A DNA stretch of 64,000 bases from an uncultured delta proteobacterium (GCA_963812015.1 CAWETI010000003.1:1568001-1632000); one strand, 5' to 3'. Shown: positions 35,779-39,234, counted from the first letter of the stretch. Numbers and translations: made by a program. The notes: generated from the sequence alone by a model not told the origin.

Positions 35779-36414
35779 TTATCGGGGACGTCGCGGTTCC
35801 AGGAGCAGCCGCCCCAACACCTTGATCCAGGCCCCCCCTTCCCGGAGGGCCATCTTGGTCAGCCACCGGTAGCGGCGCTGCTGCCAGTAGTGGCGCACCA
35901 GGCCCCGGGCGGCCAAAGGCTGCACGGTGATACCCAGAGGGGCGAACTGGCGTCTAAAGAGGAAAGCCGCCCGGTGGATGTGCAGCGCGTCCGTCACCAG
36001 GGCCACGTTTCGGCTACCCAACCCCTGCACCAGGGGCAGGGTGTGGCGGGCCGAGGCCGCGGTGGACCGGCTGGCTTCCTCCAGGATCAGGCAGGCGGCC
36101 AGCGCCTCCCGGACCTCGGCGCCCCAGTGCGCGGCCGCCCAGGTGAGGGCCCAGTCGGCCATGGCCCGGGCTTCGGAGCAGCCGGCGTGGGGCCAGAAAC
36201 CGCCGGTGAGGATCAGGTAACTTTGAGGACCGCAATGGCGCCAGAGGTTAAGGGCGTGGGCCAGGCGCAGCCGGATCACCCGCCCCGGCCGGCCCTGGGG
36301 GTTGAGGCGGGCCCCCAACACGATGAACCCGTCCGGAAAAAGCTTGGGGGGAAAAGGCGAAAAGGGAAAACGGGGAAGAGGGGAGGAAGGCCCAACGGGA
36401 TAATCAGAGTGCAT
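35779..36414 (-). CDS. DUF218 / YdcF (ElyC/SanA-like) protein
   Basis: IVLGA, RL..AL.L, ILTGG, SEA.AM, LEEASRST..SA, LVTD..H..RA, REG; start uncertain. Confidence 0.82.
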   Translation of the reverse strand: MHSDYPVGPSSPLPRFPFSPFPPKLFPDGFIVLGARLNPQGRPGRVIRLRLAHALNLWRHCGPQSYLILTGGFWPHAGCSEARAMADWALTWAAAHWGAEVREALAACLILEEASRSTAASARHTLPLVQGLGSRNVALVTDALHIHRAAFLFRRQFAPLGITVQPLAARGLVRHYWQQRRYRWLTKMALREGGAWIKVLGRLLLEPRRPR

Positions 36415-36524
36415 GGTTGATCCTTACCCGCTTCTGCCCCTGGCGTGCTCAAGAATCCGGGTGAAGACGGCCGAATATAGAGAACCGCCTTGAAGCTTTA
36501 ACCTTTTCGCCTTTTCGCCCCAAG

Positions 36525-37319
36525 TCATTTCACCCTTTTCGCCTTTTTCCCCCTAATCTCTCCCCCTTTTCCCCCTTTTTTCCGCTTTTTCCGTAAAGCC
36601 CGGGTGCCGGCCTTCCAGGGGGGCTCTTCTTTTTTGCCTTTGGATCGCCGGGGTTTGGCCGCGGGCTGGAACATCCCGGGCAGGTCCAGGGTGAAGCTGC
36701 CGGGGGTGGGAGCCGGGGGCCGGGGCATCGAAGGTTTAGCTTTTTCCGGGACCTGGGGCGGGGGCGGTAGTTGCAGAAGATCCCGGGGCAGGGCCGGGGC
36801 CAGATACAGGCCATCGCCGTAGCCCGTAAAGCTGATGCCGCGCCGGGCCGCGGCCTGGGCTTGGACGGTGACCAGGATGGGCTCCGGGGCCCGGCGGCGC
36901 CCCAGTTTCATGGCCATCTCCGGCGTCGCGGCCAGCACCAGTTCCTGGTCCGGGGGCGGCTTGAGCCCTGCCTCCCACACTTTCCCGTGGGCCTTGGGAG
37001 GGATGGCGGCATAGAGCAGGGCAGGGGGGGGCTCCTCCAGAGGGCGGCGGAGCCGGGCCGGCTCCGGGCTCAGAGCGCGGATCTGCTCCCCGGCCACCTC
37101 GAAGGCCGGGGGCGACATCAGGCCCACCACCTGGTCCAGGTGATGGCGCCGGACGAAACCAAAGCCGGGATCCCTGGTTAAAATCTGGAGCAGGTGCTTG
37201 ATGGGGATGAACCCCGCGTCCGAGAGCACCAGCCCGAACTCGTCGGGCCGGTGGCTCAGGATGTAGGTGAGCATCCGGGCCAGGCCTTCCAGTTGCCGGG
37301 GCAGACGGTACATTTTCAC
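36525..37319 (-). CDS. RNA 2'-phosphotransferase (Tpt1/KptA)-like protein, degenerate active site
   Basis: L.YILSHRPDEFGLVLSDAGF, FE...IRA, PP..LY, GLKP, A.KLGRRR..P.LV.V; catalytic motifs altered. Confidence 0.78.
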   Translation of the reverse strand: MKMYRLPRQLEGLARMLTYILSHRPDEFGLVLSDAGFIPIKHLLQILTRDPGFGFVRRHHLDQVVGLMSPPAFEVAGEQIRALSPEPARLRRPLEEPPPALLYAAIPPKAHGKVWEAGLKPPPDQELVLAATPEMAMKLGRRRAPEPILVTVQAQAAARRGISFTGYGDGLYLAPALPRDLLQLPPPPQVPEKAKPSMPRPPAPTPGSFTLDLPGMFQPAAKPRRSKGKKEEPPWKAGTRALRKKRKKGGKGGEIRGKKAKRVK

Positions 37320-37333
37320 CTTCGCTTAACGCT

Positions 37334-37543
37334 TTACCTATCCTGAGCCGGTGCCCCGGCCGGCGGTTGGCCGGGACTGGTGGGGTTGTACGCTAAAGGT
37401 TCCGTCCTTTGAGATGCCAGGTTTATTCCTGCCGTTGTCTGGAAGGGCTGACTGCTGCTTGACCGCAGCGACTTGGCCCCCCCTCAACAGCCGCACACCC
37501 CCAAAAACATCACCAGAGACAATAAGAGGCCTGCTTTCTTCAC
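37334..37543 (-). CDS. Candidate 69-aa selenocysteine-containing lipoprotein (in-frame UGA at codon 20)
   Basis: MKKAGLLLSLVMFLGVCGC-TGA-GGAKSLRSSSSQPFQTTAGINLASQRTEPLAYNPTSPGQPPAGAPAQDR*; GGGAG RBS, upstream promoter, SECIS-like hairpin after the TGA. Confidence 0.68.
37441..37483 (-). promoter_or_regulatory. Putative bacterial SECIS element
   Basis: After UGA: GGGGGGGC-CAAGUC-GCUGC-[GGUCAA]-GCAGC-AGUCA-GCCCUUCC; apical loop starts with G, 19 nt from UGA. Confidence 0.68.
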
Positions 37544-37572
37544 GTTTCACGCTCCCATCAGGATTTAGAGAA

Positions 37573-37602
37573 AATATATCCCCTGGGGGCGAATTTAGTC
37601 AA
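37573..37602 (-). promoter_or_regulatory. Sigma70-type promoter of the candidate selenoprotein operon
   Basis: Minus strand TTGACT-N18-TATATT, about 30 nt before the GTG start. Confidence 0.6.
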
Positions 37603-37785
37603 ATCATAATGCCCAGGCCAAATCAGGTGACTGCTCATCGGGGCTGTCTGGACTCAAAGCAAAGAACCTTTTAACGCGGCTCGGAAACCTGACCGGGAAA
37701 AATAACCCCCCACCGGCTCACAACTACCAACCATTGTTGATGGCGGTTGACAAGCTGAGAAGAAATGATAATTATATTTGGATAA

Positions 37786-38325
37786 ATGGAACAGGCGCGA
37801 TATTTCCACCAGGATCAAAAGGAGCTTTTGAACGAGGCCGCGGTTATCGCCGAGGAGGTTACCTCCGACTTTTTTAAGCTGTCTGTCAGCCACTGGCGCC
37901 GCGCCCGCTATGACATCCTGACCCTGGAGGCCCTGCGGGCCGAGGAGATCAGCCCCCACGCCCTGGCCATGGTGGCCAAGTACAACGGCTGCCCGCAGGA
38001 TCGTTTGTTGCGTTCTGCGGCCTTTGATTTTTACCGGGTCTGCCTGCAAGACCACAACATCCTCAAGACCTTGAGGCAGTCTGCCGGCTTGAGTCTGTTC
38101 CCCCTGCTCCTTTACATCCTTACCCACGAACTGGTGCATATCGTGCGGTTCAGCCAGTTCCAGGCCCTCTTCGAGACCCCGGAGGAGCAGAAGCAGGAAG
38201 AAGAACGGCGGGTGCACCACCTGACGCAGAAAATCCTGGCGCCCTTGCAGGTTCGGGATTTACCGCCGGTGATGCGATATTATGATGACCAGGTTCAAGG
38301 AGATTGTCGGTATGCCAATTTATGA
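37786..38325 (+). CDS. Hypothetical protein with HExxH zinc-metallopeptidase-like motif
   Basis: LYILTHELVHIVRF plus downstream Glu-rich EEE..V; TTGACA at 37747. Confidence 0.7.
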   Translation: MEQARYFHQDQKELLNEAAVIAEEVTSDFFKLSVSHWRRARYDILTLEALRAEEISPHALAMVAKYNGCPQDRLLRSAAFDFYRVCLQDHNILKTLRQSAGLSLFPLLLYILTHELVHIVRFSQFQALFETPEEQKQEEERRVHHLTQKILAPLQVRDLPPVMRYYDDQVQGDCRYANL

Positions 38326-38611
38326 GTATCAGTGCGCCGCGTGCGGCCAGGTGGTGGAACGGTGGCAGAAGGTTTCCGATTCCCCGCTGAAGGATTGTCC
38401 GGCCTGCGGCGGTAGTCTCAACAAAATCATCAGCTCCTGCGCCTTTCACCTCAAAGGCAGCGGGTGGTATGTAACGGATTACGCCGGCAAGAACCCTGCG
38501 GCCGGCGCCAGTGACAATGGCAACGGGGCCAAGCCCGCCGAAAGCGCCAAAGACGCCAAGTCGTCTGACACCTCCACGACTGAGGCATCTTCTACCCCCA
38601 GGATAAAATGA
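38312..38611 (+). CDS. FmdB-family zinc-ribbon protein
   Basis: MPIYEYQCAACG..CPACGG..FHLKGSGWYVTDY. Confidence 0.92.
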   Translation: MPIYEYQCAACGQVVERWQKVSDSPLKDCPACGGSLNKIISSCAFHLKGSGWYVTDYAGKNPAAGASDNGNGAKPAESAKDAKSSDTSTTEASSTPRIK

Positions 38612-38655
38612 CGCACCTGTTGAACCTTCCGGGTGGGAGAGAAAGGGAGCGATAA

Positions 38656-39234
38656 GTGGCGGAAATTAAAAGTGCCTTAGAGTTGGCCCTGGAAAAGGCT
38701 GAGCAATATGGCCGAGCCAGCCGGGAAGAGATGGCGCTGGCCCAGCACCAGGACCAGGGCCGCCACCTGGCGGTGCAGTTTCTTAAAGGGGAGGGCGACC
38801 TGACGGTTGACCTGAAGAATCTCCCGGCTCCGGCCCAAGCCGCCGCCCGGCTGGCGATCAAAGAGGTCTTCCTGCGGAATCTTGGCCTGCCCCGGGACAA
38901 CACGGTGGACCCCCGCCAAAAGCGGGCCGTGGAAGGCCTGCTCCTGGTGGCCGATAACCCGAAGGCCATGGCGCAACTTCAGGCGGAATTGCAGCAGGTC
39001 CTGCAGCAATACCTCCAGATCCGCAGCAACGCCGTGCAGCAACTCAAGGCCCGGTTTGCCGCCGGGGTGGGGCAGATGCAGCAGGCCATGGAGGCCAAGT
39101 ATCGCCAGAAGATGGACCTGGATGTGGAGCACCTTCCCCAGTTTCAGGAAGAGTGGCGCCGGTTCGATGGGCAGCTCCAGGACCAGTTCGGGGCCATGCT
39201 GGAGAACCTCAAGGCCCGGATGCGGCTTGCCTGA
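38656..39234 (+). CDS. Conserved all-helical hypothetical protein
   Basis: MAEIKSALELALEK start, Gln-rich coiled coil, PQFQEEW; good RBS and codon usage. Confidence 0.75.
   Translation: MAEIKSALELALEKAEQYGRASREEMALAQHQDQGRHLAVQFLKGEGDLTVDLKNLPAPAQAAARLAIKEVFLRNLGLPRDNTVDPRQKRAVEGLLLVADNPKAMAQLQAELQQVLQQYLQIRSNAVQQLKARFAAGVGQMQQAMEAKYRQKMDLDVEHLPQFQEEWRRFDGQLQDQFGAMLENLKARMRLA

Follow-up and report, generated by a model that had tools for sequence, protein, structure and literature searches.

The DNA considered here is a 64,000-nucleotide stretch from an uncultured delta proteobacterium (GCA_963812015.1, CAWETI010000003.1:1568001-1632000), termed the window. On its minus strand, at positions 37543-37334, is a small gene that probably encodes a tiny selenolipoprotein with selenocysteine (Sec) at position +2 of the mature protein. 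The gene belongs to a genuine, conserved and unannotated gene family and is not a chance open reading frame (ORF). A preliminary description of the sequence had proposed an envelope selenolipoprotein of about 69 amino acids. The proposal is supported by conservation of the family, covariation in the hairpin that follows the TGA, a match in UGA-to-loop spacing, the presence of the Sec machinery and a coding signature after the TGA.

The promoter, the GGGAG ribosome binding site, GTG 37543, the signal peptide, TGA 37486-37484, the 49 codons beyond it and the TAA are all located where they had first been placed. The features of the locus are listed below (SECIS, selenocysteine insertion sequence; bSECIS, bacterial SECIS).

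37573..37602, minus strand: promoter, sigma-70-type; -35 TTGACT at 37602-37597, 18-nt spacer, -10 TATATT at 37578-37573
37552..37556, minus strand: Shine-Dalgarno GGGAG, 8 nt before GTG 37543
37487..37543, minus strand: predicted lipoprotein signal peptide, 19 codons with GTG start, MKKAGLLLSLVMFLGVCGC; lipobox Cys codon TGT at 37489-37487
37484..37486, minus strand: in-frame TGA, the proposed Sec codon, residue +2 of the mature lipoprotein
37441..37483, minus strand: SECIS-type hairpin, by fold, spacing, covariation and published bSECIS criteria
37337..37483, minus strand: 49-codon continuation after the TGA, GGAKSLRSSS... to ...APAQDR; the first ~15 codons double as SECIS
37334..37336, minus strand: TAA stop of the small gene, by translation
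36525..37319, minus strand: downstream gene, distant Tpt1/KptA-like (RNA 2'-phosphotransferase family), 63 bits (cut-off 231); PF01885, 39 bits

From the sequence we infer that Sec is inserted, that the product is lipidated and that the small protein has a function. In the proposed mechanism, the ribosome would begin with a lipoprotein signal peptide of 19 residues, of which the last two are the Gly-Cys of the lipobox. The UGA that comes next would be read as Sec, and the hairpin directly after it would act as a bacterial SECIS that recruits SelB with Sec-tRNA(Sec). Translation would then run on through the hairpin and a flexible tail to the TAA. Once the chain has been exported, a lipid would be attached to the Cys and the signal peptide removed. 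What is left would be an unstructured peptide, 50 residues long (about 20-57 in relatives), which has Sec in second place and is held by its lipid on the membrane surface of the cell envelope.

A base-calling error at the TGA had been named as a way in which the proposal might fail. The TGA of the window is not such an error, because contigs of two independent metagenomes carry it also. One contig (X2) is identical in sequence over 37337-37487, and a ~94%-identical relative from a third study (X3) spans 37431-37631 with the TGA unchanged. The promoter agrees with the consensus at 10 of 12 positions; two such sites are present in 1.5 kb, compared with 0.3 expected from shuffled sequences, and the promoter sequence is retained in the relatives G012, G005 and G010. 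Of the 29 family members whose start was assigned, most have an AAGGAG/GGAGG-type site no more than 20 nt before the start codon.

The hairpin and the selenocysteine machinery

RNA folding reproduced the two-stem structure of the preliminary description, in which 19 nt separate the UGA from a GGUCAA loop. The lower stem, GGGGGGGC/GCCCUUCC, pairs 37483-37476 with 37448-37441, the upper stem, GCUGC/GCAGC, pairs 37469-37465 with 37458-37454, and the apical loop occupies 37464-37459. The minimum free energy (MFE) is -29.6 kcal/mol (z = -3.17), and none of 200 shuffled sequences folds as well. The exact core motif of the hairpin is found only once in the 3.96-Mb genome. There is no T-run after the hairpin, and it is therefore not an intrinsic terminator. 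A search of Rfam over 36000-39000 revealed no family, only chance microRNA-type matches (E 0.22-8.9).

The bSECIS model, as given in the legend to Fig. 2 of a 2026 review (PMC13188914), has an apical loop of 3-9 nt with a G in the first two loop positions, an upper stem of 4-16 bp, a distance of 16-37 nt from the UGA and an MFE of -7.5 kcal/mol or lower. The window hairpin is within all four limits, with its 6-nt GGUCAA loop, an upper stem of at least 5 bp, 19 nt of spacing and -29.6 kcal/mol. The match to SECIS hairpins of the same genome is stronger evidence than these published criteria. Counted from the U of UGA, the apical loop begins at nt 23 in the small gene and at nt 22 in SelD and FdhA1-3, and the loops of SelD and of FdhA1-3 all start with GG, that of FdhA2 being GGUCU.

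Covariation, to which the preliminary description had looked for support, is evident in a MAFFT alignment of 47 unique sequences compared with 500 shuffles. The local hairpin is 86.4% paired across the alignment and has 20 cells with compensatory changes, and no shuffle reaches either value. The pair 33-48, for example, is A-U 15 times, G-C 15 times and A.C 17 times. A long-range helix between GGCUGUUGA and UC.AGCAGCC, which RNAalifold gave with six sequences, was rejected as a selected structure, as 308 of the 500 shuffles reach it with the 47 sequences; a synonymous GGA codon disrupts it in 10 sequences. The Gly-Cys-UGA codons can nevertheless pair with the 3' side of the SECIS in most copies (83.9% of cells; window 37490-37441, alignment columns 10-18 with 40-49). 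This pairing may be a consequence of the resemblance of GCUGU to the GCUGC of the stem, or it may mask the UGA in untranslated mRNA.

The window's genome (G000) has the Sec machinery, the lack of which had also been named as an argument against Sec. SelA (608 bits), SelB (368 bits), SelD (373 bits) and tRNA-Sec (74.7 bits) are all above curated cut-offs. SelD and four formate-dehydrogenase-type genes, on contigs C2 and C3 outside the window, each contain one in-frame TGA. SelD and three FdhA genes have the hairpin loop at nt 22; in the fourth, Fdh-like gene (C2:864408-865160) the 70 nt examined gave no hairpin of this kind. SelB is present in 60 of the 69 genomes of the family, in genomes that carry the small gene and in those that do not, and its presence thus does not separate the two.

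Conservation of the gene family

By blastn, six of 41 related genomes have the region, in addition to the window's own genome. Five of these have a signal peptide that ends in Gly-Cys, a TGA and a hairpin with the core CUGCGGUC-A-CAG; the sixth, G010, matches in the promoter only. Six sequences served to build a covariance model of the TGA and hairpin. Of the 69 genomes of the same family it matches 45, which belong to 7 of the 14 genera and have as many as four copies each. The full structure of signal peptide, Gly-Cys, TGA and open tail is found in 29 of the 30 loci that were fetched. A strict pattern scan with one genome per species (185,579 species) gave 48 loci, 43 with the full gene structure and five chance matches without a signal peptide. 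Nearly all of the 43 are labelled Desulfobaccales or 'delta proteobacterium' metagenome-assembled genomes (MAGs); two are on short contigs in bins labelled Peptococcaceae and Bathyarchaeia. The unique copies collected number 98, almost all from Desulfobaccales MAGs.

In a six-frame profile search of 83 genomes of the class, 46 contained the family, a count that includes G075, later recognized as a false match. G075 had been considered as an orthologue without Sec (Cys-Ala-Gly-Gly, E 5.5e-6) and was rejected, as the hairpin is missing there and so are all the conserved neighbours. The only match in the class outside the family-level lineage (f1) is in G035 and is noise. In a sample of 401 genomes of the phylum, the only matches outside f1 were one strong match (G354) and one weak match to the signal peptide only. 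The G354 locus has type II context (see below) and is 73-100% identical to family loci, which points to a misbinned contig or a recent transfer, and it was not accepted as a wider range. The two G035 matches and a match in G182 are confined to the signal peptide or are weak noise. Within the genomes sampled, the family thus looks confined to one family-level lineage of Desulfobaccales.

L066, in G013, is degenerate: the Cys codon is missing and an in-frame TAG is present just upstream of the Gly-TGA, with the hairpin intact, and the same MAG has a second, partial copy at a contig end. In G012 (L002/L041) the hairpin is 2 nt closer to the TGA than in the nearest relative, G005. A tail that resembles that of G005 lies in the +1 frame, and the in-frame reading is open for 45 codons. 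Either an assembly error or a tolerated frameshift would account for the shift.

The UGA is itself conserved. Of the 54 matches that the profile gave in the class (83 genomes), 51 have TGA; the remainder comprise two cases of noise and a small lipoprotein of another kind, which has Ala at +2, lacks the hairpin and shares no neighbours. Metagenome contigs were scanned with the hairpin pattern required and the Sec codon left free, a search that copies lacking both TGA and hairpin escape. Of the 71 loci obtained, 69 have TGA, one has CGA and one is a chance match; there are no Cys codons among the 70 genuine copies. A HMMER search of 1.84 billion protein representatives revealed only four gene-called homologues, in clusters of one to three members, with Arg, Gly or Trp at the Sec position and one frame-shifted. 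The Trp homologue is a TGA decoded by the gene caller under another genetic code. Gene-finding software has missed the family, in line with the earlier statement on ordinary ORF callers. In some copies a TGA also serves as the ordinary final stop, and the organism therefore does not read every TGA as sense. The preliminary description had looked for conserved TGA and hairpin, or else TGC/TGT homologues. The first was borne out, with 69 of 70 genuine metagenome copies having TGA; homologues of the second kind were absent from the genomes, proteins and contigs searched. It had also regarded homologues with a non-Cys sense codon as damaging, and those found are an Arg variant (CGA) and a cluster with Gly, each of them very rare.

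A lipoprotein signal peptide has a positively charged n-region, an uncharged hydrophobic h-region and a lipobox that ends in [GAS]-Cys. The signal peptides of the family conform to this rule (45 of 45 unique sequences). All have Lys or Arg in the first eight residues, no Asp or Glu in the last 15 and an x-Gly-Cys end, and the mean Kyte-Doolittle value of the last 15 residues is 2.38. The Gly (GGC, GGT, GGA) and Cys (TGT, TGC) that precede the UGA are invariant as residues and vary in their codons. The ratio of nonsynonymous to synonymous polymorphism (pN/pS) in the signal-peptide region is 0.66 in frame, compared with 1.06 and 1.44 out of frame.

The alignment also bears on which Cys would be lipidated. 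Two possibilities had been offered, Sec as residue +2 after the lipidated Cys, or an LGVC lipobox that leaves a free C-G-C-U motif. The residue two upstream of the lipobox Cys is Cys in the window and Ser, Phe, Tyr, Leu, Ala, Gly, Cys or Trp in other members, and this variation makes the second possibility unlikely. The first is what the family alignment shows: the Cys to be lipidated is the immediate neighbour of Sec.

The frame after the TGA is open in every copy examined, with the qualification that two metagenome contigs (L164 and L170) have a TAG three codons after the TGA. With Sec inserted, the mature product of these two would be only Cys-Sec-Gly-Gly-Gly, with the SECIS beyond the stop; they may be either a minimal functional form or dead copies. 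Tails are 20-57 residues long among relatives, and the mature peptide of the window has 50 residues. The tail includes a ...PQLQVPADSQVDH... region. The commonest tail reads ...PADSQVDHxVSGSPVCSQKIAG, and the region after its Leu-Arg is SSSPQLQVPADSQVDH... Both the position of the stop and the ...QKIAG end are conserved across genera, and a conserved Cys near the C-terminus is found in two of three subgroups. In 38 unique 37-aa tails of the commonest subgroup, pN/pS beyond the hairpin is 0.66 in frame, compared with 0.96 and 1.01, and entropy at the three codon positions is 6.98, 7.25 and 10.24, third positions being the most variable. AlphaFold2 predicts a helix for the signal peptide only; the mature part is coil with no fold (predicted local distance difference test scores of 50-57), in line with the disordered tail that had been described.

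Genomic context and competing explanations

The small gene is found in three genomic contexts, and in each a same-strand gene follows it. In type I it has a PgaB/IcaB-like polysaccharide deacetylase gene on one side and, on the other, a glycosyl-hydrolase-like DUF4015 gene and then a gene for a NagX-like acetyltransferase. In type II, the context of the commonest tail, a divergent ArsR/SmtB regulator gene and a DGC-domain gene are upstream, and usp and then convergent MauE-like and rhodanese genes are downstream. The Tso (three selenoprotein operon) neighbourhood has a TsoR regulator and TsoB, a rhodanese/DsbD selenoprotein; the type II neighbours resemble these two but score far below cut-offs (TsoR 43.4 versus 115 bits; TsoB 51.7 versus 805 bits). 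In the window subgroup, including G005 and G012, the small gene is between a divergent 179-aa gene and the distant Tpt1/KptA-like gene. The listed start of the latter, GTG 37319, is 14 nt beyond the TAA of the small gene, no terminator-like site was found between the two on the minus strand, and they are probably co-transcribed. In G010 the window-type promoter is directly before the Tpt1/KptA-like gene. Four genomes of the family keep the type I flanks, deacetylase and DUF4015, with nothing between them; these non-carriers thus offer no Cys form by synteny.

Three further observations concern these regions. In L153 (G063), a non-carrier, an inverted repeat, AGCTGTCAGCTATCAGCTAAAAGC ... GCTGAAAGCTGATAGCC, occupies the 290-nt gap between the deacetylase and DUF4015 genes, where the small gene would stand. 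In the type II loci L095 and L103 a motif, ccggaatttatcacc[ga]ac[ca]ggctcg, is present twice. One copy stands just ahead of the Shine-Dalgarno of the small gene, the other in the 72-nt spacer, just ahead of usp. An operator for the ArsR-type regulator is one possibility, and an insertion footprint left by duplication of the usp leader is another. The window also encodes, at 38282-38611 on the plus strand, a zinc-ribbon protein of the FmdB family (TIGR02605, 74 bits), here in its Cys form; the 2026 review (PMC13188914) gives the family in a selenoprotein form too, with UxxU.

Several observations weigh against a selenolipoprotein. One is that a homologue with Cys in place of Sec was found neither in the 83 class genomes and 401 phylum genomes nor among the 1.84 billion protein representatives and the metagenome contigs. 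For most selenoprotein families a Cys-containing homologue is known, and this is a usual criterion although not an obligatory one. Arg (CGA) in P0002 (one member) and Gly in P0005 (three members) occupy the Sec position, both very rarely; either Sec can be lost or these are dead copies. Position -2 of the lipobox is often Phe, Tyr, Leu or Cys, which is less typical. Constraint on the tail is weak, though equal to that on the signal peptide (pN/pS 0.66), and in the 42-aa group of four sequences it is absent (pN/pS 0.97). The conservation of residues +3 to +17 cannot be credited to the protein, because the hairpin encodes them. Tails of the window subgroup are divergent and have no second Cys, and the 2-nt displacement of the hairpin in G012 shifts the frame relative to its nearest relative. 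The gene is dispensable, being absent between conserved flanks. At the RNA level, the sole match is one 172-nt metatranscriptome contig of a relative, 88% identical and covering 37250-37416; it could be DNA carry-over and is too weak to count as expression.

Of the alternatives, the least unlikely is a Sec-sensing leader, an upstream ORF at which stopping or inserting Sec at the UGA sets expression of the downstream same-strand gene and the peptide itself has no function. A same-strand gene follows in all three contexts. The stop in the window is 14 nt before the listed start of the next gene with no terminator between, the small ORF may be present or absent before otherwise conserved genes, and the repeated motif flanks it in type II loci. 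A leader needs no signal peptide or lipobox, yet all 45 unique peptides keep both while codons and sequence vary. Beyond the UGA the frame is open, has the same pN/pS as the part before it and ends at a conserved stop. The next gene begins anywhere between about -20 and +835 nt from that stop, and none of the genes that follow (Tpt1/KptA-like, DUF4015, Usp) is a selenium gene. A pure leader is therefore considered unlikely; a dual role, as selenoprotein and leader, is possible.

In a second alternative the UGA is an ordinary stop, the ORF has only ~19-24 residues and the hairpin is some other RNA element such as a stabiliser or protein-binding site. The lack of a Cys homologue in the data searched is compatible with an ordinary stop, as are L164 and L170, where the long tail is not kept. 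Against this, the tail is conserved in its frame, in the place of its stop and in its amino-acid pattern, and its pN/pS is lowest in frame; the hairpin shares loop sequence and spacing with the genome's own SelD/FdhA SECIS and, with no T-run, is not an intrinsic terminator. We also know of no role for a product that consists of a signal peptide plus Cys alone. An ordinary stop appears quite improbable. Least credible is read-through without Sec, in which the hairpin would stimulate near-cognate decoding of the UGA (e.g. as Trp or Cys) or a frameshift: stop-codon read-through stimulated by RNA structure is known in general, yet this hairpin fits the SelB-type SECIS model in a genome with the full Sec machinery, no slippery sequence is conserved, and tolerance of any residue predicts common sense codons where 69 of 70 genuine copies have TGA. 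Frameshifting on the G-run after the TGA was rejected as well, the G-run being peculiar to the window's copy.

Comparison with known selenoproteins and lipoproteins

Selenoproteins are hard to find: the Sec codon looks like a stop, and pipelines rely on Cys homologues and recognisable domains. Homology-based pipelines would miss the present family, because no Cys form exists in the data searched. The window protein matches no family at E <= 10 in Pfam and NCBIfam 20.0, which include SaoC, MbdU, KCU-star and TsoA/B/C/X/Y. Four typical members gave only noise below the cut-offs (fusolisin, 10.8 bits; DUF6567, 17.3 bits). None of the 119 families and subfamilies in Table 1 of PMC13188914 fits, although supplementary tables of the papers compared could in principle list it. 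The families of Haft and Tolstoy 2025 were compared through the review's table and NCBIfam accessions. The word 'lipoprotein' is absent from the main text of PMC13188914 and from the BSepDB paper, and literature on selenoproteins with a lipoprotein signal peptide, a lipobox or Desulfobacca offered nothing relevant beyond Haft and Gwadz. The earlier impression that this is not a described family is thus upheld as far as these sources extend. Its omission from Pfam, NCBIfam and the 119 review families is probably due to the lack of a Cys homologue or a recognisable domain.

As to function, a tentative suggestion is a selenol at the membrane surface that carries or reduces sulfur or selenium species, or binds soft metals. 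In two of the three subgroups Sec might work with the conserved Cys near the C-terminus. The type II neighbours (the ArsR/SmtB-type regulator, the DGC-domain protein, the MauE-like membrane protein and the rhodanese) were considered together with this suggestion. Perhaps the working part is little more than lipid-anchored Sec, that is, the lipidated Cys and Sec on a short flexible linker, which would define a minimal class of selenoprotein that places a selenol at the envelope membrane surface. This minimal form fits because some tails are 20 residues long, barely exceeding the SECIS, and one variant would stop after Cys-Sec-Gly-Gly-Gly.

If the selenolipoprotein is real, it would be among the smallest selenoproteins and, in the sources compared, the first with Sec directly beside a lipid anchor. 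It raises the chemical question of the role of a membrane-tethered selenol in the envelope of anaerobic sediment bacteria. It would also be a warning to annotators that a real gene may be concealed where a very short ORF looks like a signal peptide only and stops at TGA. For now the impact is moderate, the family being confined to one uncultured lineage.

Genes decoded by SelB in bacteria, such as E. coli fdhF, share with the small gene an in-frame UGA, a loop starting with GG at 19 nt, a G+C-rich stem and the Sec machinery. The small protein differs in having no fold, no Cys homologues and Sec at +2 of a mature lipoprotein. The selenoproteins with a CU motif (SaoC, SaoB, SaoL and HgcA of Haft and Gwadz; the later NCBIfam families MbdU and KCU-star) resemble it in the Cys-Sec dipeptide and in annotation truncated at the UGA. 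SaoC proteins, as described in the preprint text (bioRxiv 10.1101/2022.07.06.499078), mostly have lipoprotein signal peptides, average 158 aa and have CC/CU at the C-terminus. In the CU-motif families the dipeptide lies within a folded or longer protein, or at its end, and metal can be bound by both chalcogens, whereas the Cys of the small protein is the lipobox Cys, whose sulfur would be a thioether once lipidated. The same consideration limits the likeness to the GCUG redox tail of thioredoxin reductase that had been noted: the Cys-Sec pair is present, and the comparison is otherwise weak, since lipidation would block the Cys thiol.

LptM/YifL of E. coli (PF13627) is a small disordered lipoprotein that acts through its lipidated N-terminus. 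The small protein is like it in size, lipobox, Gly/Lys-rich mature start and Pro/Gln-rich unstructured tail; LptM has no Sec. Part of the resemblance may be imposed by the RNA, because the SECIS stem encodes the Lys-Gly-Leu stretch. Homology was rejected: PF13627 has no match in the window's genome at E <= 10 (73 candidates scored), a model that in control genomes scores above its cut-off in one of 14, and the likeness is an analogy only. The decoding mechanism proposed is a known one, and the type of protein is new, with no fold, no Cys counterpart and Sec placed beside a lipid anchor.

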